Source: an uncultured Dehalococcoidales bacterium
Lineage (GTDB): Bacteria; Chloroflexota; Dehalococcoidia; Dehalococcoidales; UBA5627
NCBI GenBank assembly: GCA_964547375.1
Contig: CAZJMW010000002.1
Span: 1-44,445, forward strand
Direction of reading: 5' to 3'
Length of the DNA: 44,445 nt
In this document: in pieces, positions 4,976-30,196 of the stretch
Position numbering within the stretch: the stretch's first letter is position 1
How the letters are laid out: the number at the start of each line of letters is the position of its first letter
Notes under the pieces: generated by a model
The model's database searches: none
The model's input: the letters and a program-made list of their open reading frames with translations, nothing else
What the model was told of the DNA's origin: nothing
Made by a program: the position numbers and the translations under genes

Positions 4976-5770
4976 TTAATGTTCCGGCGGGTAATTGGCG
5001 AACGAAGCCTTGGTAGCTCCGCAAACAGGACACCTCCAGTCATCCGGGATATCTTCAAAGGCTGTTCCGGGAGCAATTCCTCCATCGGGGTCTCCAACTG
5101 CCGGGTCGTAAACATATCCACACATGTCAGTTTGGCAATAATAAACTCTCATATCGGCCGATGAAGTTGAAGTAGTGGTAACTGTTGTAGTTATTACAGT
5201 GCCGACACTTTCATTGTATTCCTGTACTGATAGATAATGAGGCTGGTATTGAACTCCCTTTTCGCTCAATGCTGATACAAATATCCTCAGGTGTCCGTGT
5301 GAACCGGTGGTCAGCTTGCTATAGGCACTATTTATATCTGCCGCATCAGTTTGTTCCCAGTATTTTTTGATATCGACAATATCAATTTCTTCAACCATAG
5401 CCGCTATTTCCAGAGCATCCTCTTCGGATTTCGAACCCTGTGCGGTCAGTTCCTGATAAAGCTCTTTTAAGTCCTTATTGGTAAATTTACCATAATCATT
5501 ATACTTTATCGGATTATCATATCCATACTTATCAATCATTTCCTGTACTATTTCCATATGCGCCTGCTCGCTATGGCTAATGGTATCCATTATGTACGTT
5601 CCCCATTTTTCATGGAAATATTTATATACATCCCTGGCGAATTTTTCTACTTCATAGATGCGAATCAGGCCCTCTTCCTTGATATCCTGTGCTTTTGACG
5701 AGCAAGCTGACAAAACCGCTGTTGAAAGAATAGCCAGAGCTAAAGCCGCATAACCTTTTTCTACTGCCAT
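4976..5770 (-). CDS. Predicted lipoprotein: ferritin-like DUF2202 domain fused to a C-terminal rubredoxin domain
   Basis: The signal peptide carries a lipobox ([15 protein letters not shown]). The ferritin-like segment is [19 protein letters not shown]...[20 protein letters not shown]. The C-terminus [48 protein letters not shown] matches rubredoxin almost residue for residue. Confidence 0.75.
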
Positions 5771-6180: not shown

Positions 6181-6254
6181 GTCACTCTGAGTGAAGCAAA
6201 GCGTCTAAATGCCATTCGAATAGCCTTAGATACTTCATTTCATTCAGGATGACA
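6181..6254. repeat. Palindromic dispersed repeat, family A (GTCAYTCTGAG...TCTAA / TTAGA...TTCAGGATGAC arms around a TCGAAT-containing loop)
   Basis: The left arm is gtcactctgagtgaagcaaagcgtctaa. The reverse complement of the right arm is gtcatcctgaatgaaatgaagtatctaa, giving an imperfect ~28-bp inverted repeat. Positions 6203..6254 are identical to 9131..9182. Confidence 0.85.
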
Positions 6255-6261
6255 ATTATCC

Positions 6262-6291
6262 ATTGGTAGGGACGGGCGTTGCCCGTCCGCC
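6262..6291. repeat. GC-rich hairpin repeat, family D (GGACGGGC-nnn-GCCCGTCC)
   Basis: An 8-bp perfect stem (6270..6277 / 6281..6288). Nearly the same 30-bp unit recurs at 27464..27493. Confidence 0.8.
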
Positions 6292-6304
6292 ATTATGTTT
6301 AAAA

Positions 6305-6418
6305 TTAACGTCTGCGATTTCTGGTCATCGCTTCCCACATGATCCTTTCTAAATAATAGATAACCAAGCAAATAGCGAAAGCAACAACTAATGTCCATAC
6401 AAAATCCCATTCTATCAT
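6305..6418 (-). CDS. Possible 37-aa membrane peptide (MIEWDFVWTLVVAFAICLVIYYLERIMWEAMTRNRRR)
   Basis: I translated this by hand because it is below the ORF-track size cut-off. The ATG is preceded by GGAG (6428..6431) with a 9-nt spacer. It has one hydrophobic helix and a basic tail. It is co-directional with the 2H phosphoesterase gene and lies 43 nt downstream of it. Confidence 0.3.
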   Translation of the reverse strand: MIEWDFVWTLVVAFAICLVIYYLERIMWEAMTRNRRR

Positions 6419-6461
6419 TTTATTTTACTCCTTTTAAAAAAATAATTATTTGTTTTATAAA

Positions 6462-7178
6462 TCAGTTTCTCATGAATTTTTTGATGGCATCTTTTAATGA
6501 TTGAAAACATGAATGTTGTATTTTACTATCTGGTTCGTGGGTCCTGTTCTTACTTAAATATCTTCTAATTCTTGTATTGGTTTCAGCTTCTGTTGTCCTG
6601 CTCAATGCTTCATTTCTTGTTAGTGTTCGTTTCAGGGAAAAATCATACTCACTAAGTATTTTATGGTTTTTTAGAAGGGTAACTCGTGTAATAAAATGGT
6701 GATTGTATGGTTGTTTTTGGTGGCGTAGATAACTCATGACTCTATTTAATTGATGCTGATTAAGGTTCATGGCTATTGTAATATGAGGGCAGTAGTAATC
6801 TTTTTTTGTGTCATATGTACGGTCAAGTTGACAGTAACTTTTTAAACGAGAAAGAAGAGCCCATCGCAGTTCAAGCAATTCTTGCGAGGGTTTAATATTG
6901 ATTTTAGCCACGCCATTCGAATTGTTGCATGGAAAACTCCCAAACCCATCAAATTGGAGTTCCATAACCGGATACTGAGAACAAATTGAAGTAAAATCGT
7001 GTAATAACCTTTTTTCATCCTGTCTCGGATTAAGGGGCGTAGGGTTTGAGACTATTGAGATATGGGGGATAGGTTTTGAACCTCGTAAATAGCAATTTCT
7101 TCTAACGTCATATGTTATAGTTCTGATTTCATGCTTCATACTGCCCATAATCCTGACTTCGATAAAATAACTTGCCAT
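6462..7178 (-). CDS. 2H phosphoesterase superfamily protein (LigT/ThpR-like cyclic phosphodiesterase) with a basic C-terminal extension
   Basis: It has two H-x-S/T-x motifs at the expected spacing: PHISIVSN and PHITIAMN. Its start abuts the stop of the upstream Nudix fusion gene (0-nt gap). Confidence 0.65.
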   Translation of the reverse strand: MASYFIEVRIMGSMKHEIRTITYDVRRNCYLRGSKPIPHISIVSNPTPLNPRQDEKRLLHDFTSICSQYPVMELQFDGFGSFPCNNSNGVAKINIKPSQELLELRWALLSRLKSYCQLDRTYDTKKDYYCPHITIAMNLNQHQLNRVMSYLRHQKQPYNHHFITRVTLLKNHKILSEYDFSLKRTLTRNEALSRTTEAETNTRIRRYLSKNRTHEPDSKIQHSCFQSLKDAIKKFMRN

Positions 7179-8222
7179 TTAATACCGCTCCGGTTTGCTA
7201 CTAACGGTCTCCATCCGTTTGATTGTTTCCAGACCCAATGAAGTAATGTAATCAAGACTAACAGGTTTATAGTTTGTTAATTCGACACTGACATTTATCG
7301 TTTTATTTTCCCCATTAATAAATGGATAACGCTGCATACTGTTGTTATGAGTATGACCGTGTATAATCCAATCTTGCCAGCCTGAAGGAATTGGGCTTTT
7401 AACATATTTGGGATAAGGACTGGGGTCGTGAACAAGAAAAAACTTATAGCCGTTATATTCCAGTATTTTGTGACTGGCTCCAAATTTATTTGGGTCATGA
7501 CTACCTTGAATTTTTATTACTTTACCTTTAAAGTCTTTTTTTAATCGTTTATTGACTTTATTTAAATCTTTTGCAAATGGTACTAAATCTCCCAGGAAAT
7601 AAACTGTATCCTGTTCTGAAACCGTGTTATTCCAGTTTGTAATCAATACCTTATTCATAACAGTAGTATCAGCAAATGGTATTTGGCAGTATCTTATTAT
7701 GTTTTTGTGGTCGAGATGCAGGTCGCCTATGAGGTATATCTTATCGTTGTGAGAAGATGAGATATGAAGGTTATCTGGTTCCGGTCTTTGCGATTTTGAA
7801 AATATTGTATCTACTGAATGATTACCGCGCTTTTGGTTGTAATATTTTTCAATAATTGCTTTGGTATCGGCAGAGATTTTTAGCTTGCAGTCGGGGTTGT
7901 AGTAGTCGATACGTTTTATCTCGTGACAAGGGCTGGCTCTACCGCTGGTTTGTATCAGGCACACTGTATGGTGATCTCTATAATGGTATCTGTTATTAAT
8001 TTCACCGATATGATGGAAAAGGTATTTTATTGAATTTGGCTTTAATCCTGTCTCTTCATAAAGTTCTCTGGCGGCTGCTTTTGTTCTGGTTTCGTTGTCT
8101 CTGGCTTTCCCGCCCGGCAATAAAAATGCTCCATGCCAACTGCCGGAGGTCAGGAGAATGCCATTTTCTGTTTCTACGATAGCAGTTCCCCTGCGACGTT
8201 TTGTTATGTTTTCATGTTGCAT
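7179..8222 (-). CDS. Fusion protein: N-terminal Nudix hydrolase and C-terminal calcineurin-like metallophosphoesterase
   Basis: The Nudix box GGKARDNETRTKAAARELYEETGL is canonical (G-x5-E-x7-REUxEExGU). The metallophosphoesterase motifs are YLIGDLHLDH, YFLGDL, QGSHDP and IHGHTHN. Confidence 0.85.
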   Translation of the reverse strand: MQHENITKRRRGTAIVETENGILLTSGSWHGAFLLPGGKARDNETRTKAAARELYEETGLKPNSIKYLFHHIGEINNRYHYRDHHTVCLIQTSGRASPCHEIKRIDYYNPDCKLKISADTKAIIEKYYNQKRGNHSVDTIFSKSQRPEPDNLHISSSHNDKIYLIGDLHLDHKNIIRYCQIPFADTTVMNKVLITNWNNTVSEQDTVYFLGDLVPFAKDLNKVNKRLKKDFKGKVIKIQGSHDPNKFGASHKILEYNGYKFFLVHDPSPYPKYVKSPIPSGWQDWIIHGHTHNNSMQRYPFINGENKTINVSVELTNYKPVSLDYITSLGLETIKRMETVSSKPERY

Positions 8223-8231
8223 GTAAGTAAA

Positions 8232-8834
8232 TTAATTATCCTTGAATATTTCTTTGGGACTATATGCCATTTGTGGTTCATCCGGTTCCTGTGTCACAAA
8301 GGTAAGGTAATCCAGTTTGGTAAAATGATGTATTTTGGCAACAATATTTCTTGGAAATTTCATCACTCTTTCATTATATTGCTGTGCTACCCTATTGTAT
8401 TCCAGTCTGGTTATTCTTAATCTTTTCTCAATTCGAGAATCGCTCTCCATGAGGCGAAGGTGTAGCCTATCAGCTTTTAATTCCGGGTATTTCTCAAATA
8501 CCGCTTGGATTTTAAAATAACTATTTTCAATATCAGAAGTAAGTTTAATCTTGTCATTCAAGGGAGTATCTTTTGTCCAGCGGCTCCTGGCTTCTATAGT
8601 CTCTTTAAGAGCTTTCCATTCGTGGATGTCATATTTTTTTACTATTTGAGACAAAGCTAGAATTTTATCCAACCTTTCTTGAAGTACAACATCTATATCA
8701 GCAAATTTTCTTTCTGCTCGATTTATCCAATATTGAAATTTGTTATAGATAGTTATCCAATAACGTGCAATTATTATTAAAAGTATTAAGATTACACCTG
8801 ATATTATTAAAGCTACAATTGCCCCTGCGCTCAT
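8232..8834 (-). CDS. lemA: LemA family membrane protein
   Basis: There is an N-terminal TM helix (AIVALIISGVILILLIIIA). LemA-type motifs follow: IYNKF..., IDVVLQERLD, EKYPELKA, RLEYNRVAQQYNERVMKFPRNIVA. Confidence 0.88.
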   Translation of the reverse strand: MSAGAIVALIISGVILILLIIIARYWITIYNKFQYWINRAERKFADIDVVLQERLDKILALSQIVKKYDIHEWKALKETIEARSRWTKDTPLNDKIKLTSDIENSYFKIQAVFEKYPELKADRLHLRLMESDSRIEKRLRITRLEYNRVAQQYNERVMKFPRNIVAKIHHFTKLDYLTFVTQEPDEPQMAYSPKEIFKDN

Positions 8835-8842
8835 ATGTCCTC

Positions 8843-9013
8843 CTAGGTTGAATAATAATCCTTTTCGTTGATATTCTGTGGTTTTATTTCAACCTTAAAG
8901 TATTTAACCATGCGTTTTATGGCTTCCTGCTTTGTTTTCAGGTTGTGCATAAGTTTATAGACTTCTACAATTTTATCTTCTTCCGGGGACAAATCTATTT
9001 GTATCTTAGCCAT
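8843..9013 (-). CDS. Small predicted ribbon-helix-helix (CopG/Arc-like) DNA-binding protein
   Basis: MAKIQIDLSPEEDKIVEVYKLMHNLKTKQEAIKRMVKYF fits a beta-alpha-alpha pattern. I prefer the ATG at 9013 (GGAGA 10 nt upstream) over the track's GTG at 9037, because the predicted -10 box (9038..9043) would place transcription initiation downstream of 9037. Confidence 0.55.
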   Translation of the reverse strand: MAKIQIDLSPEEDKIVEVYKLMHNLKTKQEAIKRMVKYFKVEIKPQNINEKDYYST

Positions 9014-9037
9014 AGTTAATGTATCTCCATATAACAC

Positions 9038-9066
9038 AATATAACATGGTGTTATAAAAAAGTCAA
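9038..9066 (-). promoter_or_regulatory. Sigma-70-like promoter of the RHH-LemA-Nudix-2H operon (TTGACT-17 nt-TATATT)
   Basis: On the minus strand the -35 TTGACT is at 9066..9061 and the -10 TATATT at 9043..9038, with a 17-nt spacer. Three TATAACA half-sites (9030..9036, 9040..9046, and inverted at 9050..9056) overlap it. Confidence 0.45.
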
Positions 9067-9113: not shown

Positions 9114-9182
9114 ATTGAGCGAAACGAAGAGTCTAAATGCCATTCGAATAGCCTTAGATACTTCATTTCATTCAGGATGACA
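9114..9182. repeat. Family A palindromic repeat (left arm truncated or diverged)
   Basis: Positions 9131..9182 are an exact 52-bp copy of 6203..6254. The left arm attgagcgaaacgaagag is a diverged version of the family arm. Confidence 0.85.
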
Positions 9183-9654
9183 GGACAGCAGATGTTTTAC
9201 AGAATTGTCGCTTTAGCAGGTTAAGGCATAACTAATATCGCTGATATTGAAAAGTAAACACCAAAAATAAAAATGTCATTCTGGGCATATATGCATAAAA
9301 TGTGTGATAATTATGGGAGATTATTGAGGCACACGACGATATATTGTCTGTTTCTCAAGAGCATTATTTAACAATTTAGTCCAGAGTTCGTTTGATGAGA
9401 ACTATAATCCTTAAACCAGTTTAATAATCATGGTTTTATATTACTCTTGAATCAAAGCTAATATTAGGGGTAAAAATCACACAATTTCGAGTAATATGCC
9501 CATTCTGAAGTCACAGGGGGTGACTGAAGAATCTGGTGGGTGGGGAGAAACAGGCAAAACGGATTCCACGGCATCAGTGGTAAATGGCGTTATAAACCCC
9601 CGCCCCGGATGCTTCATTTGTCCCTCACGAATTCAGCATGACAATGCGGTAACC

Positions 9655-9749
9655 GACATTCTGAGCCATGATGAAATCCTGACGAATCCAGATGTATTGA
9701 GATAAGGGTTATCGAATGGTCTTAGATCCTTCACTTCGTTCATGATAAC
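9655..9749. repeat. Degenerate family A palindromic repeat
   Basis: gacattctgagccatgatgaaatcc ... ttatcgaatggtc ... ttagatccttcacttcgttcatgataac. It has the same arm and loop architecture as 18541..18615. Confidence 0.6.
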
Positions 9750-9813
9750 AATTTAATCGTTTATCTATTTGCTATATATGTAAACAATAGGGGCGGACGA
9801 CCGGTGGTCCTCC

Positions 9814-11095: not shown

Positions 11096-12139
11096 TTAAT
11101 TGGATTTATTATCGTAGTTCCCCAAGTTGATTAATGCCCGCTGAATCATTTTATTTATTTCCGGGGTCTCGTTAATCCAAATCATTTTCACTTCCGGATG
11201 TTCCAGGCGATAAACTCTAAATATTTCATCGGCAAATGCCTGCCCTATCATCTCTATCCCCTCGAAGTCCAATAGTACTTCTTGAAATTGTTCAAATCTG
11301 GCTAACAATCGTTTGGCTTGAGAACGTGAGACGAGTTGTTCCCCTTTATATCTTGCCAATTCTATTGGAATATGAGTTTTAGTAAAACCAAAGTCGCCTT
11401 TTTCAGGGGCATATTCGTCAAATACCTGTTGAATAGTTCTTTTTGAGTTTAATGATATTTCCATAATAACCATAGTGCCGTCTTGTGTGCTATCTCTTGA
11501 TTCCACCAACCAATCGCTATCTTCTTTACTTAAACGGATATAATGCAATGGATTTGATAGTATCGAAAAACTATCAAACATACGAGATGTAAAGAATATT
11601 CCTTCACCTGAATGATGTTGGGGGTCTGAGGTAAGCTTTCCCTTTGTAAGTTCCAATAAGGCATGTCTCGGATCATTTAAGTTGAAATCCCTCTGGATCT
11701 TGTTAAATATTCCTATACCTGAATCTAAGATACATAGTTCAATATTAATAGCATTGCGTATTATGCTATAAAAAACACTATTTGACTCAGAATGATCGAA
11801 TACATTACGCATAATTTCTGTAAAACCATACTGACAAATGTCCAATACATTTGGATTCAAATCTTTTACATATGGAAATATATCCTCTCTCCATAAAACA
11901 TCCTCTTGTAAACCCAAAGTTACATTTTTTAAAAATTGTTTTTCAATTAAATTAATCATCTCATATTTGCGTGATCGTGTCTTGCCCGTAGCGGTAATCA
12001 ATCCTTCATCGATTAATTTAGTAAGATAGTTTACTATGGTTTGTCTTGATAACTTGAACTCGTTGGCTGTGAAGGTAGCTATATCATTCGGGTGTTCAGC
12101 TATATTATTTAAAATAAATTCTCTTATTACATTATCCAT
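11096..12139 (-). CDS. Fusion protein: winged-HTH, GHKL (histidine-kinase-like) ATPase, and a C-terminal STAS-like (DUF4325-type) domain
   Basis: The wHTH is FKLSRQTIVNYLTKLIDEGLITATGKTRSRKY. The GHKL N-box is EIMRNVFDHS, the G1 box is ILDSGIGIF and the G2 box is SGEGIFF. The C-terminal VLLDFEGIEMIGQAFADEIFRVY is typical of STAS-like DUF4325. The gene is visibly AT-rich. Confidence 0.75.
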   Translation of the reverse strand: MDNVIREFILNNIAEHPNDIATFTANEFKLSRQTIVNYLTKLIDEGLITATGKTRSRKYEMINLIEKQFLKNVTLGLQEDVLWREDIFPYVKDLNPNVLDICQYGFTEIMRNVFDHSESNSVFYSIIRNAINIELCILDSGIGIFNKIQRDFNLNDPRHALLELTKGKLTSDPQHHSGEGIFFTSRMFDSFSILSNPLHYIRLSKEDSDWLVESRDSTQDGTMVIMEISLNSKRTIQQVFDEYAPEKGDFGFTKTHIPIELARYKGEQLVSRSQAKRLLARFEQFQEVLLDFEGIEMIGQAFADEIFRVYRLEHPEVKMIWINETPEINKMIQRALINLGNYDNKSN

Positions 12140-15005: not shown

Positions 15006-15557
15006 ATGATTGTAAGAGTCAATAATACCACCATATCGCTAATAAAGGGCGACATCACGCTGCAAAAAACGGATGCTATCGTCAATGCTGCCAACTCCGG
15101 GCTTTTGGGTGGGGGAGGGGTGGATGGCGCCATTCACAGGGCTGGCGGTTCTTTGATACTCGAAGAGTGTAAAAAGATAGTGGAGAAGCAGGGGAGATTG
15201 CCGGCTGGTCAAGCAGTTATTACAACCGCAGGCAAACTGGCTGCCAAATATGTCATCCACACGGTCGGCCCGATATGGAAGGGCGGAAAAGCCAATGAAG
15301 CGTCAATTCTGTCGAGTGCCTATACCGAGAGCCTCGGGCTGGCTGAAAAACACGGCATCAAAAGTATTGCCTTTCCGTCGATTAGCACCGGGGCATATGA
15401 ATATCCACTAGAAGCGGCAGCTTCAATCGCAGTTGCCTCTATCGTCAAGTTTGCCAAAGAAGAAGCCGTATCAATAAAAGAAATCGTGTTAGTTTTATTT
15501 AACGATGCCGCTTATGAAAACTATGCCGGCGCTCTCGCAAAAATATCGCAACTATAA
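15006..15557 (+). CDS. Macro-domain protein (ADP-ribose / O-acetyl-ADP-ribose hydrolase, YmdB-like)
   Basis: [36 protein letters not shown] and [12 protein letters not shown] are canonical macro-domain motifs. Confidence 0.9.
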
Positions 15558-25981: not shown

Positions 25982-26947
25982 ATGAGTATAACAATAGATA
26001 AAAGTAAAACTTTAACCTGCAAATATTGTAATTCAAATGCAATAAGTAAATTTGGTAATTACAAAGGGAAACAGCTTTATTGGTGTAAAGTATGTAGTCG
26101 TAAATTCAAAGCTGATGATGCATCGTTCCGAATGAAAACACCTATTAAGGAAGTATCGTCAGCTTTGAATATGTATTATAGTGGAATGAGTATAAACAAT
26201 ATAAAAAGATTTCTAGAACAGGAATATACTCATAGTCCATCTACAGCTACCATTTATGAATGGGTACAAAAATATACTCAATACATAATAGACAGTATAA
26301 AGGAATGCAAACCAAATAATATTGGTGATACTTGGGTAGCAGACGAAACTGTATTAGCTGTAGATGGTGGTAAATTGTGGTTATGGGATATTATTGATAT
26401 TAAAACACGCTTCTTATTAGCTTCTAGATTGTCTAGAAGTAGGACAACAGATGATGCTCAGATATTAATCAATAAGGCAGTAAAACAAGCTGGTAAATAT
26501 CCTAAATTGGTATTGACAGATAAATTGGCAAGTTATGAAGATGTATTTTATGGAAAGGATTCAGAACACCAGCAAGGCAGTCCGTTTGATGTTAAAAACA
26601 ATACAAATCTAATCGAAAGATGGCATGCTACTCTAAAGACAAGGACAAAAGTTATGAGAGGGCTTAAAAACTTTGAAAGTGCATTAGAATTTACTAACGG
26701 ATTTCTAGCCTATTATAACTATATTAGACCACATTCAAGTATAGATAAAACACCAGCAGAAGCTGCAGGAGTTAAATATCCTTATAAAAACTGGGCAGAA
26801 ATAATACAGCGTCATAAACCATCGAGAAAAATAGAAATATTACATATGTCTAGAGATAGGGTTAAATTACCACAAGCACAGATAGGTAGACCTAAAAAGT
26901 TAAGAACTAAATTAATACAATCTATAACTGCAAAAAAATTAAGGTAA
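25982..26947 (+). CDS. DDE transposase, IS6-family-like (COG3316 type), with an N-terminal zinc ribbon
   Basis: The zinc ribbon is CKYCNS...CKVCSRKF. The DDE core contexts are WVADETVLAV, LVLTDKLASYEDV and NLIERWHATLKTR, followed by YNYIRPHSSIDKTPAE. Confidence 0.9.
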   Translation: MSITIDKSKTLTCKYCNSNAISKFGNYKGKQLYWCKVCSRKFKADDASFRMKTPIKEVSSALNMYYSGMSINNIKRFLEQEYTHSPSTATIYEWVQKYTQYIIDSIKECKPNNIGDTWVADETVLAVDGGKLWLWDIIDIKTRFLLASRLSRSRTTDDAQILINKAVKQAGKYPKLVLTDKLASYEDVFYGKDSEHQQGSPFDVKNNTNLIERWHATLKTRTKVMRGLKNFESALEFTNGFLAYYNYIRPHSSIDKTPAEAAGVKYPYKNWAEIIQRHKPSRKIEILHMSRDRVKLPQAQIGRPKKLRTKLIQSITAKKLR

Positions 26948-27980: not shown

Positions 27981-29504
27981 TTAATCAGCAGGCCTTCCGT
28001 AATATTCCCAGCCGCCGTATAACTCATCGGTAAGAAGTATAAATGCCGCTGTATTATTATCATAGAACATGCTCATCATTTCTTCTTTTGTCTCCACAGG
28101 AAAATTATCGAAACAATACTGCGGATCATTGGCGGTAAATGTACTCACCCAATAAGCTACCAGTGTATCGTTATCCATTAAGCCGGCGCTATTTTCACCG
28201 GTGATTTCTCCCGCATTTATATATACGTCTTTTCCGTTAGCGCTATTCGAATAATGAATAACATTATTCGTACGATCAAAACCAATAGTATTGCTTAATT
28301 CTTTTGTTGTAGTAGAAAGAGACCTCTCATAAGAGTCCTTAACGTAATCATGAACGGCTTGCTGTCCTTCCTCGGGCAGTGCATTGAAATAAACTATCCA
28401 ATCTGTCGAAGTGAGCATGGCCATTAGAATCTCTTCTACAACAGAAACATCATCCCAGTCCTCGTCTCCTGTTAAAGCGGCAAGGGCTTCATCTACCGGC
28501 ACAAAAACAATACTCGTCTGAAGATGGCTATCCTCGCTTGATTGTATAGGTTCAACTTCCCAACCCTCTTTCAAATTACCATCAGAATCCACCGGCATAT
28601 CCACATCTATTTCAACGTTGTAGTCATAATAACGGGTTGTGATAATATGCGTTCCATAGTCTACTTTTATCTGGCGGGTTAGATAATCATCCTCTCCAAG
28701 CCATATTTCCCATTTCATATCTATTATATCTTCATAAAGCTTCGGGATTCCGATATAATGCAGGCAATTCACGCCGTCTATAACCTCATCCTCCAGCTGC
28801 ATAAGATCATTCATAAAATCCAGAACCGCCATAGCATGCTGCTGCCCCGATTGTGTATATATATAATAAAAACCGACCTGTTGGAACAAGAAACTGTGAG
28901 CTTTATTTCTATCGGCTAGAGAATACATATCTTCCCCGATATAATAATTCTCGTAACTGCCCTCACTATAGGTGCCTACTCCGTTATAATAGGAAACCGT
29001 TCCGTAATCAATTATTACGTGCGTTATTTCATCCGACACAAACTCATATGTAAAAATTATATAAGATTCATATGTTTCCCCATCGATTATCTCATCGGCA
29101 GACCATATTATTTCCATTCGATATGTCTGTACCTTTTCCGCAGCCTCTTTTGCCATAGCGATAATCCCAAGATTGCCATTACTAGTCCACGGCTGCAAAG
29201 CAAACAGCATGGCTATGATAGCCACAACTGAAAGAGACAATACAGCCGGTTGCAGCCATTTTAGAATTGGCTTAACGGGTTGTATTCCTTTAATTCTCGA
29301 CATCGTCGTGCCTTTAATATCCTGCATAGCCGGGGTTTCTCTGAGGGATGAAATCTTTAAATTTACTCCCTTATAGTTGTTCACTGTAGCCATGCAATCC
29401 GGGCAACAGGCAAGGTGTTCTTCGATAAAATCCTTTTGTATAAGTGAAAGCTCTCCGTCCGCATAAGCCGAAAGCAATCCTTTAAAATCTTTACAATTCA
29501 TCAA
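27981..29504 (-). CDS. Anti-sigma factor (zf-HC2) with one TM helix and a ~400-aa extracytoplasmic domain of unknown fold
   Basis: The N-terminus CKDFKGLLSAYADGELSLIQKDFIEEHLACCPDC is the putative zinc-finger anti-sigma motif. The TM helix is AVLSLSVVAIIAMLFAL. The gene overlaps the sigma gene stop by 4 nt. Confidence 0.8.
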   Translation of the reverse strand: MMNCKDFKGLLSAYADGELSLIQKDFIEEHLACCPDCMATVNNYKGVNLKISSLRETPAMQDIKGTTMSRIKGIQPVKPILKWLQPAVLSLSVVAIIAMLFALQPWTSNGNLGIIAMAKEAAEKVQTYRMEIIWSADEIIDGETYESYIIFTYEFVSDEITHVIIDYGTVSYYNGVGTYSEGSYENYYIGEDMYSLADRNKAHSFLFQQVGFYYIYTQSGQQHAMAVLDFMNDLMQLEDEVIDGVNCLHYIGIPKLYEDIIDMKWEIWLGEDDYLTRQIKVDYGTHIITTRYYDYNVEIDVDMPVDSDGNLKEGWEVEPIQSSEDSHLQTSIVFVPVDEALAALTGDEDWDDVSVVEEILMAMLTSTDWIVYFNALPEEGQQAVHDYVKDSYERSLSTTTKELSNTIGFDRTNNVIHYSNSANGKDVYINAGEITGENSAGLMDNDTLVAYWVSTFTANDPQYCFDNFPVETKEEMMSMFYDNNTAAFILLTDELYGGWEYYGRPAD

Positions 29505-30034
29505 ACCCCACCTCCCTTATAAAATTTCCGGAATGTTTCTTTTCCTCTTGTAACACGCATCCGTACGGCATCTTCCGAAATCCCCAGTGTTTTGGCTATC
29601 TCTTTATATTTAAAACCTTCAACCAGATGCAGAATCAAGCAAGTCCTTTGTTCTTCGGGAACTTTAATCAGTGCTTCCTGTATCTCCATCCTGTCATTTA
29701 TACAATTATCTCGAATTGCACCTGATTGGTTATCCGCTTCTGTGCTATCTTCAAAAGAAATAAAGGAAATGAGCTTCTTCCGGCGGCGGTTTTGCCAGGC
29801 ATTGTTGGTGGCGATGCGGTAAAGCCATGCCTTGAATGAGATGTCCTCTTTTGCCTTCAGGATTCCCTTATAGGCCTGAACGAAGGTATCCTGTGCCAAA
29901 TCCCTTGCCAGTTCATAGTCGCCGGTTAGGCGGTAGAGGTATCTTTGAATAGGTATCTGGTATTTTTCGATAATATCGGCGAAGGCATCTGTATTACCCG
30001 CTTGTACCCGAGCTATAACCGCAACTTCATCCAA
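29501..30034 (-). CDS. ECF-type RNA polymerase sigma-70 family factor
   Basis: Region 2 is FADIIEKYQIPIQRYLYRLTGDYELARDLAQDTFVQAY and the region 4 HTH is FKYKEIAKTLGISEDAVRMRVTRG. I prefer the TTG at 30034 (AAGGAAAG RBS 6 nt upstream); the track's ORF extends to a TTG at 30112 that has no RBS. Confidence 0.82.
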   Translation of the reverse strand: MDEVAVIARVQAGNTDAFADIIEKYQIPIQRYLYRLTGDYELARDLAQDTFVQAYKGILKAKEDISFKAWLYRIATNNAWQNRRRKKLISFISFEDSTEADNQSGAIRDNCINDRMEIQEALIKVPEEQRTCLILHLVEGFKYKEIAKTLGISEDAVRMRVTRGKETFRKFYKGGGV

Positions 30035-30196
30035 AATAAACTTTCCTTCAAGACCGTTCTCTTCATTCCCTCTATATATTAAGATGCTTGAGAATGGCAA
30101 AACCGAACACAATTATTAGCAACATCTTATATGAGCGATAATCAAGATGCAATAATTTGTGATATAAAAATAAAAAAGTTATATAATATTCTTATT

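Follow-up and report, generated by a model that had tools for sequence, protein, structure and literature searches.

A conserved RHH-like/LemA/Nudix/2H gene cassette in Dehalococcoidia and archaea, tentatively assigned to the clean-up of ADP-ribose-type nucleotides

A 44,445-nucleotide (nt) stretch of the genome of an uncultured Dehalococcoidales bacterium (contig CAZJMW010000002.1 of assembly GCA_964547375.1), here called the window and always meaning the whole stretch, carries a compact cassette of five genes on its minus strand. In the direction of transcription, these encode a small ribbon-helix-helix (RHH)-like protein of 56 amino acids (aa) (8843..9013), a LemA protein (8232..8834; 200 aa), a fusion of a Nudix domain with a metallophosphoesterase (MPP) domain (7179..8222; 347 aa), a 2H phosphoesterase (6462..7178; 238 aa), and a single-pass membrane peptide with a basic C terminus, RNRRR (6305..6418; 37 aa). 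The initial annotation of this DNA had described five open reading frames (ORFs) on the same strand and an AT-rich composition; both were borne out, by the ORF list (6305-9013) and by a G+C content of 0.35 in the cassette versus 0.46 in the remaining window. The intergenic gaps are 8, 9, 0, and 43 nt, a trivial difference from the 9, 9, 0, and 43 nt first given, and the start codon of the 2H gene abuts the stop codon of the fusion gene. For the RHH-like gene, an alternative GTG start would lengthen the product to 64 aa (8843-9037). The ATG at 9013, which is preceded by GGAG, is favored because 56 aa is the product length in nearly all of the homologues listed. Ribosome-binding sites were also seen upstream of the LemA gene (AGGAGG) and of the membrane peptide gene (AAGGAG).

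The gene order RHH-LemA-Nudix-2H recurs in dozens of metagenome and genome loci from Dehalococcoidia, Methanosarcinales, Woesearchaeota, and other lineages. Six-frame ORFs of the fetched loci were searched with the window proteins using phmmer and then jackhmmer. The cassette was present in more than 30 of 80 metagenome loci, which had been fetched by a profile of the Nudix domain alone. Clustering of the Nudix anchors at 90% identity gave 72 clusters, and the 32 with at least 1 kb of upstream and 0.9 kb of downstream sequence were kept as well-flanked, non-redundant loci. Among these, a 2H gene lies within 2.5 kb of the Nudix gene in 23/32, RHH and LemA genes are both present in 16/32, and an MPP is present in 7/32. 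Eighteen genome loci have organism names, including Methanosarcinales and Woesearchaeota. The cassette was found in a Methanosarcinales locus (L026; RHH-LemA-Nudix-2H), a Woesearchaeota locus on a cut contig (L031; RHH-LemA-Nudix), Dehalogenimonas (L197), and a contig labeled Bacteroidales (L198). In Methanobacteriota, Methanophagales, Methanomicrobiales, Nanoarchaeota, and Halobacteria, the Nudix gene stands beside a 2H gene, either co-directional or divergent, and in two loci (L022 and L033) an MPP gene follows the 2H gene. Three look-ups that started from the RHH protein all recovered LemA and Nudix genes, plus a 2H gene wherever the sequence extended that far. Nudix and 2H form the conserved core, RHH-LemA usually accompanies them, and the MPP is optional.

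Gene fusions link the same enzymes. Among the 120 listed homologues of the Nudix::MPP fusion protein, approximately 90 are 2H::MPP proteins (∼410 aa, with the 2H domain N-terminal and the MPP domain C-terminal), seven have the Nudix::MPP architecture, and three (P0015, P0038, and P0098) are 2H::MPP::Nudix triple fusions of 570 aa. The C-terminal tail of the MPP domain (IKRMETxxSxPER[YW]) and a helix following the 2H domain (LSRxEALS) are common to the split and fused forms. The fusion of the same three domains in different orders is strong evidence for a common pathway. The full Nudix::MPP fusion has a narrow distribution, every locus from the genome collection being titled Dehalococcoidales or Dehalococcoidia. 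In species-representative genomes, full-length relatives 79 to 80% identical (and a truncated one at 86%) occur in Dehalococcoidales-titled contigs, and one at 55% occurs in a Dehalococcoidia genome, whereas the assembly collection holds no record identical to the window fusion protein itself. In that Dehalococcoidia genome, RHH-LemA-Nudix::MPP-2H lies in another context, with dnaN (DNA polymerase III beta subunit), a class-V fructose-1,6-bisphosphatase gene, and a restriction endonuclease gene. The initial annotation held that its proposal would fall if homologues of these genes were never neighbors or if their catalytic residues were not conserved. They are neighbors in dozens of other genomes, and the active-site residues of the Nudix, MPP, and 2H domains are conserved. 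We therefore consider it very probable that the module is real and functionally coupled. The accompanying claim of three hydrolase chemistries holds as to the three domains, and it gave too much weight to the MPP in view of its presence in only 7/32 loci.

The genes surrounding the module were examined by clustering the neighboring ORFs of the ∼72 non-redundant neighborhoods and by a Pfam scan of the 149 nearest neighboring proteins, from which the 25 most frequent of 158 matched families were listed. Neither revealed a further recurrent partner, apart from housekeeping genes, which reflect synteny, TPR proteins (4/149), and a CBS-domain membrane protein (nine loci, of which approximately six are independent). 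The last is the sole non-module neighbor that recurs beyond synteny. This CBS-pair protein with a membrane segment (PF00571; 4447-5994 in L010, and also in L011, L012, L030, L056, L090, L103, L104, and L109) adjoins the module or a triple fusion, and its C-terminal region appears by eye to be of the CAP/SCP type.

The 56-aa protein had been described as a small RHH protein. Its fold similarity and the naming of some relatives as DUF2683 by NCBI and JGI lend indirect support to that description. Pfam and NCBIfam gave no match, and a PDB sequence search with a profile of the protein returned spurious designed proteins alone. The AlphaFold2 (AF2) model of the monomer (pLDDT 69) contains an unstructured segment at residues 1-9, helices at residues 10-22 and 28-39, and a low-confidence tail. 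Nearly all of the top Foldseek matches are RHH proteins (MazE-mt1, NikR, VapB11, PutA, and TacA2), and none is significant (E ≥ 1), as expected with ∼40 aligned residues. The protein has 193 relatives, and the 120 listed are 66 to 98% identical and occur in bacteria and archaea. The identity between bacterial and archaeal proteins is 68 to 95%, versus 43 to 59% for the Nudix domain. In the tail, P45, K51, and Y53 are invariant and D52 is at least 90% conserved. The 56-aa protein is RHH-like and probably an autorepressor, with a conserved C-terminal tail that is predicted to be disordered.

A promoter-like site (TTGACT-17-TATATT, with TG before the −10 hexamer and 10/12 consensus matches) is located at 9038..9066 on the minus strand, properly placed upstream of the ATG at 9013, and TTGACA-type −35 boxes occur at the same relative place in related bacterial loci. 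The consensus-like promoter of the initial annotation was thus found at its position, with the qualification that the frequency of promoter-type matches in this AT-rich stretch is indistinguishable from background (20 found versus 17.2 expected from shuffles), so that it is the position of the site that speaks for it. A candidate RHH operator at 9030..9056 (minus strand) consists of the half-sites TATAAC (9051-9056), GTTATA (9040-9045), and GTTATA (9030-9035), spaced 10 to 11 bp apart; they overlap the spacer and −10 hexamer of the promoter as well as the region where transcription would start. Upstream of 31 distinct RHH genes, TATAAY/RTTATA half-sites occur at 2.6 per 100 nt versus 1.04 in shuffles (largest, 1.55), a count to which the −10 consensus itself contributes, and the palindrome TATAAY-N3-7-RTTATA is present in 13/31 loci versus a shuffle mean of 0.5 (largest, 4). 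Archaeal loci carry, by eye, CATATAT-type repeats just past a TATA-like box, which lie outside the scored pattern. Because the half-sites overlie the promoter, we infer that the RHH protein may repress its own operon through this conserved putative operator.

At the other end of the cassette, a G+C-rich hairpin (GGACGGGC-AAC-GCCCGTCC; 6264..6292, minus strand) lies 13 nt past the stop codon of the peptide gene. Its predicted folding energy (ΔG) is −16.9 kcal/mol (z = −3.8), and 0/200 shuffles fold equally well. The hairpin likely marks the 3′ end of the operon; it is no textbook intrinsic terminator, since no run of T residues follows it. No comparable structure was found between the cassette genes, which is compatible with a single transcript.

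The LemA protein of the window matches PF04011 (E = 2.6e-32) over 146/149 profile positions and a LemA protein of known structure, PDB 2etd (E = 4e-17). It has the architecture of the family, a hydrophobic stretch at approximately residues 4-24 followed by a four-helix-bundle domain, in agreement with the membrane LemA first proposed. The bundle is predicted to be cytoplasmic because the positive residues come after the membrane helix (the positive-inside rule). Among the 32 well-flanked loci, LemA and RHH are paired in all 16 that have either gene and never occur singly. Antitoxins bind their partners in a comparable arrangement; by analogy, the strict pairing, the short distance of 8 nt between the genes, and the conserved, disordered RHH tail lead us to propose that LemA would tether the system and perhaps control it. 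LemA is a very widespread membrane family without an established function, and the papers found on LemA assign it no mechanism. The cassette offers a concrete setting for LemA as a possible tether or regulator of a Nudix enzyme: in both archaea and bacteria, LemA is strictly paired with a repressor-like protein and accompanied by a constant set of nucleotide hydrolases. Mycobacteria provide an independent instance of the LemA-Nudix link, the LemA-like::Nudix fusion protein ML0451c, for which a role as a membrane scaffold has been proposed (bioRxiv 10.64898/2026.07.15.738315).

The same pairing could be read as a toxin-antitoxin (TA)-like addiction pair in which LemA is a membrane-acting toxin and the hydrolases are hitch-hiking passengers. 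A small RHH gene 8 nt upstream of a strictly co-occurring LemA gene, the conserved disordered tail, the best Foldseek matches to RHH antitoxins (E ≥ 1), and an AT-rich, mobile cassette are all features of such a pair. LemA is widespread, however; toxicity is not described in the LemA papers found, and we know of no report of it. The hydrolases, moreover, are linked by fusions and adjacency even where RHH-LemA is missing, and where it is present they are tied to it in an order that is constant in both archaea and bacteria. Mere passengers would not keep such an order, and we regard a TA-like pair as highly improbable.

The Nudix domain occupies approximately residues 10-130 of the fusion protein (7833..8195, minus strand). 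It matches PF00293 (E = 8e-12; residues 10-94), and its nearest PDB entry is the uncharacterized 3f13 (E = 1e-17). The Nudix box reported earlier, GKARDNETRTKAAARELYEETGL, fits the pattern GX5EX7REUXEEXGU exactly, as expected of a member of the superfamily, and the residues G37, G38, E44, R52, E53, L54, E56, and E57 are invariant in 15 diverse homologues. The same alignment shows a family-specific RRRG motif near the N terminus, with R9 and G12 invariant and conservation of at least 90% at R10 and R11. Farther downstream, the pair H100-E101 is also invariant.

The MPP domain spans approximately residues 160-330 of the fusion protein (7233..7745, minus strand) and is of the aq_1665/phage "phosphoesterase" type, matching Metallophos_2 (PF12850; E = 7.5e-8; residues 162-299), the phage phosphoesterase family phrog_547 (E = 2e-34), and Aquifex aq_1665 (PDB 1xm7; E = 4e-10). 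The motifs first read from the translation (GDLHLDH, GDL, GSHD, and GHTH) correspond to metal-binding motifs of the MPP superfamily, of which DLH, GD, GSHD, a single histidine (H265), and GHTH are invariant in the seven Nudix::MPP fusions. Motif III, in which S241 takes the place of a normally metal-binding Asn, varies across the family: it is GSHD in 66/120 listed proteins, GNH[DE] in 41/120, and GA, GD, GG, GT, or GY in the remainder. In the 2H::MPP fusions, GSHD accounts for 53/93, with N, A, D, G, T, or Y in the second position in others. The idea that GSHD is a peculiarity of the Nudix::MPP fusions was dropped for this reason, the motif being common throughout the MPP family. The variability of motif III may reflect a second metal site that is atypical throughout the family.

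The 2H protein matches 2_5_RNA_ligase2 (PF13563; E = 5e-15). Both histidines of the previously noted HISI and HITI motifs, H39 and H132, are invariant in 64 sequences, as are R9, R165, and T167. The AF2 model (pLDDT 88) has 32 Foldseek matches at E ≤ 1e-3, all of them 2H-fold chains, which places the protein in the 2H superfamily. Matches of the model include YjcG, a Pyrococcus horikoshii LigT-like protein, Usb1, Escherichia coli LigT, and the Arabidopsis cyclic phosphodiesterase (CPDase) acting on ADP-ribose-1″,2″-cyclic phosphate (Appr>p), with E values of 1e-5 to 2e-3, and further a Deinococcus CPDase, AKAP18, and viral cyclic GMP-AMP (cGAMP) and 2′-5′ phosphodiesterases (PDEs). The model has no outstanding closest match among them. 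Thus, the catalytic residues of all of the cassette enzymes are intact.

The 37-aa peptide is conserved in eight loci, all with Dehalococcoidales-type cassettes, and synonymous codon changes exceed non-synonymous ones in the comparisons made (9/2, 8/3, and 9/3). The membrane peptide of the initial annotation is a real small membrane protein that lies outside the wider module. The peptide and the Nudix::MPP fusion were seen in Dehalococcoidia loci only.

In some lineages, extra genes are inserted between LemA or Nudix and 2H, and the identity of these genes varies. The slot of L048 contains a separate MPP gene and genes for a DUF3267 zincin-like membrane protein, an ADP-ribosylglycohydrolase (PF03747; E = 5e-59), and a TPR protein. 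L053 and L074 carry a 208- to 225-aa protein with macro-domain signatures (VINSANGFLLLGSGGAG ... ALPL), for which the Pfam Macro match is below the cut-off (E = 3e-4) and among PDB entries the macro proteins TTHA0132 and MACROD2 match best. L061 and L199-201 carry an HD-like 370-aa protein with an H...HD motif. The slot appears from these assignments to hold alternative phosphoesterases, two of them from ADP-ribose-specific families. The HD-like family (1738-2847 in L061, 5821-6930 in L199, 6475-6906 in L056, and 104-451 in L015) has an LHDIGK motif and two C-terminal repeats of ∼55 aa, "WHD..Y/FD.LK.WVK...G...YR...G.YQV"; searches of Pfam, NCBIfam, and PDB sequences gave no match. In L015, a repeat-only member of the family is located upstream of a 2H::MPP fusion. 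In a cassette relative 79 to 80% identical to that of the window, a 266-aa multi-pass membrane protein with no family match lies between Nudix::MPP and 2H (L006, 1387-2187; L017, 7091-7888).

This membrane protein, together with LemA and the 37-aa peptide, which are also membrane proteins, could indicate a function in the control of membrane-lipid or glycoconjugate precursors. LemA would then place the Nudix enzyme to hydrolyze a CDP-alcohol (such as CDP-archaeol) or a nucleotide sugar, with 2H and MPP acting on a cyclic or monoester phosphate of a head-group intermediate. A precedent is found in ML0451c, which resides in a pgsA/patA/pimA operon and is modeled by its authors as a scaffold for phosphatidylinositol mannoside (PIM) synthesis. 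Lipid-precursor control is nonetheless very unlikely in our estimation: neighbor clustering and the Pfam scan revealed no recurrent lipid-synthesis or glycosyltransferase gene, LemA is missing from half of the loci (16/32), and the ADP-ribosylglycohydrolase and Macro inserts point to ADP-ribose. To our knowledge, 2H enzymes act on nucleotide or ribose phosphates.

We propose, tentatively, that the cassette encodes a repressor-controlled, membrane-tethered pathway that dismantles nucleotides of the Appr>p type. In yeast, Tpt1 is followed by Cpd1 (a 2H enzyme), Poa1 (a macro protein), and Ysa1 (a Nudix enzyme). An ADP-ribose-derived substrate is the best single guess given the families found in the slot and this classical 2H-to-macro-to-Nudix route. 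The initial annotation had allowed anything from ADP-ribose-derived or cyclic nucleotides to RNA ends. Its ADP-ribose branch gains some support from the ADP-ribosylglycohydrolase and the divergent Macro protein inserted into the operon of other lineages, and the full range was too wide and leaned too heavily on the MPP. In the proposed pathway, an RHH dimer would bind the TATAAC/GTTATA half-sites over the promoter and repress the operon, as its fold, the repeats, and the gene order suggest, and the conserved disordered tail of the RHH protein would contact LemA, as the strict co-occurrence and the architecture of RHH antitoxins suggest. LemA, membrane-anchored with its bundle in the cytoplasm, would be the tether or scaffold and possibly an element of derepression. 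The enzymes would act in series on one nucleotide-derived substrate, presumably in the following order: 2H opens the cyclic phosphodiester, a phosphomonoesterase (MPP here, an HD-like or Macro protein elsewhere) removes the exposed phosphate, and Nudix cleaves the pyrophosphate bond. Appr>p would thereby be converted to ADP-ribose-1″-phosphate, to ADP-ribose, and to AMP plus ribose-5-phosphate. The role would be the clean-up of ADP-ribose-derived by-products or adducts near the membrane, with the 37-aa peptide as a membrane accessory specific to Dehalococcoidales. Enzymes of the 2H, calcineurin-like, and Nudix types have been proposed to process 2′,3′-cyclic ends or ADP-ribose cyclic phosphate (ADPr>P) (PMC9503650).

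Several observations weigh against this proposal. The link to ADP-ribose comes from only three locus types of ∼72, with the Macro match below the Pfam cut-off, and neither the ∼72 neighborhoods nor the Pfam scan showed an ADP-ribosyltransferase, Tpt1/KptA, sirtuin, or TIR gene recurring beside the module. In 7/32 well-flanked loci, the Nudix gene stands alone. A proline ∼16 residues past the Nudix box reportedly marks ADP-ribose pyrophosphatases (Dunn and coworkers, 1999); in this family, the residues 16 past the box are of the N/H/K type with no conserved proline, and ADP-ribose could still be a substrate. In NCBIfam, the Nudix domain scores best against RNA pyrophosphohydrolases (YtkD, E = 6e-9, and the RppH models), far below the cut-offs, and the 2H model is approximately equally close to LigT, YjcG, and Usb1, which are RNA-end enzymes. 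The contact between the RHH tail and LemA and the binding of DNA by the RHH protein are suggested by analogies only.

The Nudix and 2H matches agree as well with the main rival explanation, that the module cleans up RNA ends. Nudix would convert a 5′-triphosphate or an NAD or ADP-ribose cap to a 5′-monophosphate, 2H would open 2′,3′-cyclic phosphates (2′,3′>P) left by metal-independent RNases, and the MPP or HD-like protein would remove the resulting 2′- or 3′-phosphate, the products passing to housekeeping ligation or to exonucleolytic decay at the membrane. Phages frequently encode members of the MPP family (568 records), in one case next to an RNA ligase gene, and a 2H enzyme with a linear phosphatase is the usual route for cyclic RNA ends in reviews (PMC7824862 and PMC9503650). 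Nevertheless, no RNA ligase, polynucleotide kinase, Hen1, RtcA/B, or nucleotidyltransferase gene recurs in the ∼72 neighborhoods, nor was a ligase or kinase seen among the 25 listed Pfam families, so that the locus does not resemble the Pnkp/Hen1, RtcAB, or T4 Pnk/Rnl repair systems. The ADP-ribosylglycohydrolase and Macro inserts fit poorly with an RNA substrate, and the low NCBIfam scores apply here also. Archaeal RtcB requires 3′-phosphate or cyclic phosphate ends, so that healing to a hydroxyl would oppose ligation by this enzyme. We consider RNA-end clean-up a somewhat unlikely but serious contender.

A bolder version of the ADP-ribose proposal makes LemA a sensor. A membrane or infection cue perceived by LemA would free the DUF2683 repressor and switch on Nudix and 2H (plus MPP, HD, or Macro proteins) as an eraser of ADP-ribose-type marks or signals, serving either as a host-side defense against ADP-ribosylating or NAD-derived attack or as a signaling off-switch. 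We judge this version unlikely; if true, LemA would for the first time have a mechanism assigned to it, regulating nucleotide hydrolases and serving as their scaffold. More generally, the little-explored pathways for the clean-up of ADP-ribose and cyclic phosphates would gain a cellular member that is mainly archaeal. Two large families also emerge from the module, a Nudix subfamily with at least 1963 cluster representatives and the 2H::MPP fusions. If the substrate is an ADP-ribose derivative, an unrecognized source of such molecules in these organisms is implied.

The flanking genes identify the window as bacterial chromosome: they include genes for a formate-dehydrogenase-like molybdoenzyme, ACPS, YebC, RuvC, RuvA, an Old Yellow Enzyme (OYE)-type reductase, MoeA, a Macro-domain protein, leucyl-tRNA synthetase (LeuRS), and catalase. 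Metagenomic relatives with 92% and 79% identity keep the flanks of the window, with OYE and MoeA on one side and RuvA and RuvC on the other, so that in this lineage the cassette has a constant place on the chromosome. Rfam and tRNA scans found no RNA gene in or near the cassette, the window containing a single, distant tRNA-Ala gene. The cassette, with its promoter and terminal hairpin, is enclosed by two copies of a 67-nt palindromic direct repeat, at 6188..6254 (downstream) and 9116..9182 (upstream). The copies match at 63/67 positions and are the only two in the window (0 expected by chance), and each folds as a long imperfect hairpin (ΔG = −22.9 kcal/mol and z = −4.2 for the upstream copy) resembling repetitive extragenic palindromic (REP) sequences or miniature inverted-repeat transposable elements (MITEs). 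Recombination between the repeats could loop out the cassette. As integration attachment sites they were rejected, and they are considered secondary, because close relatives have the cassette in the same place without them.

Further observations concern the surrounding DNA. In the window, ∼600 nt of non-coding, AT-rich DNA with no Rfam match (9183-9775) separates the OYE-type reductase gene from the cassette; the corresponding distance is 73 to 93 nt in the relatives L018, L019, and L021. An 81-aa gene, judged from its sequence to be HicB/UPF0150-like, lies on the opposite strand just past the 37-aa peptide gene in L005 (9981-10226), L019 (8477-8719), and L021 (7416-7658); the window lacks this gene and has a 67-nt repeat region at that place. 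Immediately downstream of the cassette region, a minus-strand gene (4976-5770) encodes a lipoprotein-like fusion of DUF2202 (ferritin-like) with a C-terminal rubredoxin. A second AT-rich patch (G+C, 0.34), located between the genes for OYE and MoeA, contains a minus-strand gene (11096-12139) for a 347-aa protein with a C-terminal STAS-like DUF4325 domain and a weak match to a PADLOC CARF model (E = 4e-4). It looks like an inserted accessory gene because OYE and MoeA adjoin in L005 and L021. A canonical Macro-domain protein (PF01661; E = 7e-46) is encoded on the plus strand at 15006-15557, 6 kb from the cassette and not adjacent to it, and L005 has a Macro gene at the corresponding place. The most AT-rich patch of the window (G+C, 0.31) contains a plus-strand insertion sequence (IS)-type DDE transposase gene (DDE_Tnp_IS240/rve; 25982-26947), adjoined by genes for an extracytoplasmic function (ECF) sigma factor and a zf-HC2 anti-sigma factor (27981-30112).

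The cassette is more AT-rich than its flanks in 22/25 loci, by a mean of 7.4 points, and its distribution over archaeal phyla and Chloroflexota is patchy. These features fit a horizontally spread accessory operon of the form RHH/DUF2683-LemA-Nudix-(variable phosphoesterase)-2H, as judged from composition and distribution. A viral origin was rejected, since IMG/VR contains no relative of the RHH protein and viral contigs carry stand-alone Nudix genes only, with no LemA or 2H gene within 8 kb; PHROG matches exist for LemA and MPP. A plasmid origin was likewise rejected, as plasmids carry stand-alone MPP genes only, and in two haloarchaeal plasmid regions no 2H, Nudix, or LemA gene is annotated near the MPP gene. 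The cassette was also rejected as a known defense system, there being no match to a system of PADLOC-DB 2.0. The sole PADLOC match is a weak, generic one of the Nudix protein to the candidate PDC-S07 (E = 2e-5), with none for RHH, LemA, 2H, or the peptide. A protein with a NERD nuclease domain and a Top1-type zinc ribbon is encoded beside the module in two unrelated locus groups (L007, 4884-5564; L199, 2847-3587; also L008, L200, and L201), and its NERD part weakly matches the PADLOC PglW model (E = 2e-8).

These data bear on the signal-clearing or counter-defense role suggested by the initial annotation. As an immune-signal off-switch or countermeasure, the module would degrade cyclic oligonucleotides, 2′-5′ oligoadenylates, or Thoeris-type ADP-ribose isomers, as Acb1 and the poxvirus cGAMP PDE degrade their signals. 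The 2H model does match the penguinpox cGAMP PDE, a Burkholderia phage PDE, and a viral 2′-5′ PDE; the AT-rich composition and patchy occurrence are like those of accessory or conflict genes, and the neighboring NERD genes and the PDC-S07 match would fit as well. The remaining evidence does not place the module in such a role. Neighbor clustering and the Pfam scan showed no recurrent cyclase, TIR, CARF/SAVED, or effector gene, nor a ligase or kinase; neither a PADLOC system nor a viral contig carrying the module was found, unlike what would be expected of a viral Acb1-like anti-defense gene; and in the window and its relatives, the cassette is located among housekeeping genes (ruvABC, moeA, and the OYE-type reductase gene). 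An off-switch is, in our assessment, decidedly unlikely, and the clean-up of ADP-ribose-type nucleotides is retained as the preferred reading.

The closest known counterpart of the proposed pathway is the eukaryotic route for the by-product of tRNA splicing, in which Tpt1 yields Appr>p, Cpd1/CPDase (2H) converts it to ADP-ribose-1″-phosphate (Appr-1″p), Poa1 (macro) releases ADP-ribose, and Ysa1 (Nudix) cleaves the latter. The same folds would act in the same order in the module. The 2H model matches PDB 1jh6 and 1fsi, the second of which is the Arabidopsis CPDase, and a Macro-like protein takes the phosphatase slot in L053 and L074. In contrast to the module, the eukaryotic genes are dispersed and not co-regulated. 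The module, for its part, has no nearby Tpt1/KptA gene, its phosphatase is usually an MPP or HD-like protein or is absent, and a putative RHH repressor and a LemA anchor are added.

Among TA operons of type II (MazE-mt1, VapB, and TacA), the likeness lies in a small RHH or, in the module, RHH-like protein with a disordered C-terminal tail, encoded just upstream of an obligatory partner, and in operator repeats over the promoter, which in the module are operator-like and predicted. In the module, however, the partner is LemA, which is not among the known toxins, and the pair is followed by two or three hydrolase genes whose order is fixed. Acb1 and the poxvirus cGAMP PDEs share the 2H fold and the paired HxS/T motifs (Foldseek matches 9ciw and 9bkq, E ∼6e-4). 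Those enzymes are viral and stand-alone, whereas the 2H protein of the window is cellular, shares its operon with the Nudix and LemA genes, and resembles them no more closely than it does LigT, YjcG, and Usb1. The mycobacterial LemA-like::NUDIX proteins of the ML0451c/Rv2609c type (bioRxiv 10.64898/2026.07.15.738315) differ in that the domains are fused rather than encoded by adjacent genes, and in that the pimA operon of ML0451c makes lipid glycoconjugates and contains no 2H, MPP, or RHH gene.

The RNA-end repair and ADPr>P neighborhoods described by Iyer, Burroughs, and Aravind (PMC9503650 and PMC7824862) also combine 2H, calcineurin-like, and Nudix enzymes, which are read as resolving cyclic phosphates and handling ADPr>P. 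They are built on RNA ligases, sirtuins, KptA, cREC, or kinases, and many are viral. The module lacks all of these, belongs to cellular genomes (archaea and Chloroflexota), and includes the RHH-LemA pair; the term "LemA" is absent from both papers. The anti-ADP-ribosylation systems centered on ADP-ribosylglycohydrolase (PMC9503650, section 3.8) resemble the module, as proposed here, in being repressor-controlled operons of ADP-ribose hydrolases without a coupled transferase, with interchangeable phosphatases (calcineurin-like and HD), an occasional Macro protein, and a variable accessory slot. Those systems are built around an ADP-ribosylglycohydrolase and use a Nudix-HTH or WYL regulator, whereas the module has at its core a catalytic Nudix and a 2H enzyme, accompanied by a putative RHH regulator and LemA; an ADP-ribosylglycohydrolase is present in only one of its locus types (L048). 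The initial annotation regarded the gene combination as undescribed, and this agrees with the literature searched, in which no published description of RHH-LemA-Nudix-2H was found; coverage of RNA-repair and 2H surveys was partial, two key comparative-genomics papers being outside its reach. Relative to the known clean-up neighborhoods, the distinctive parts of the module are the DUF2683-LemA pair and the distribution over two domains of life.

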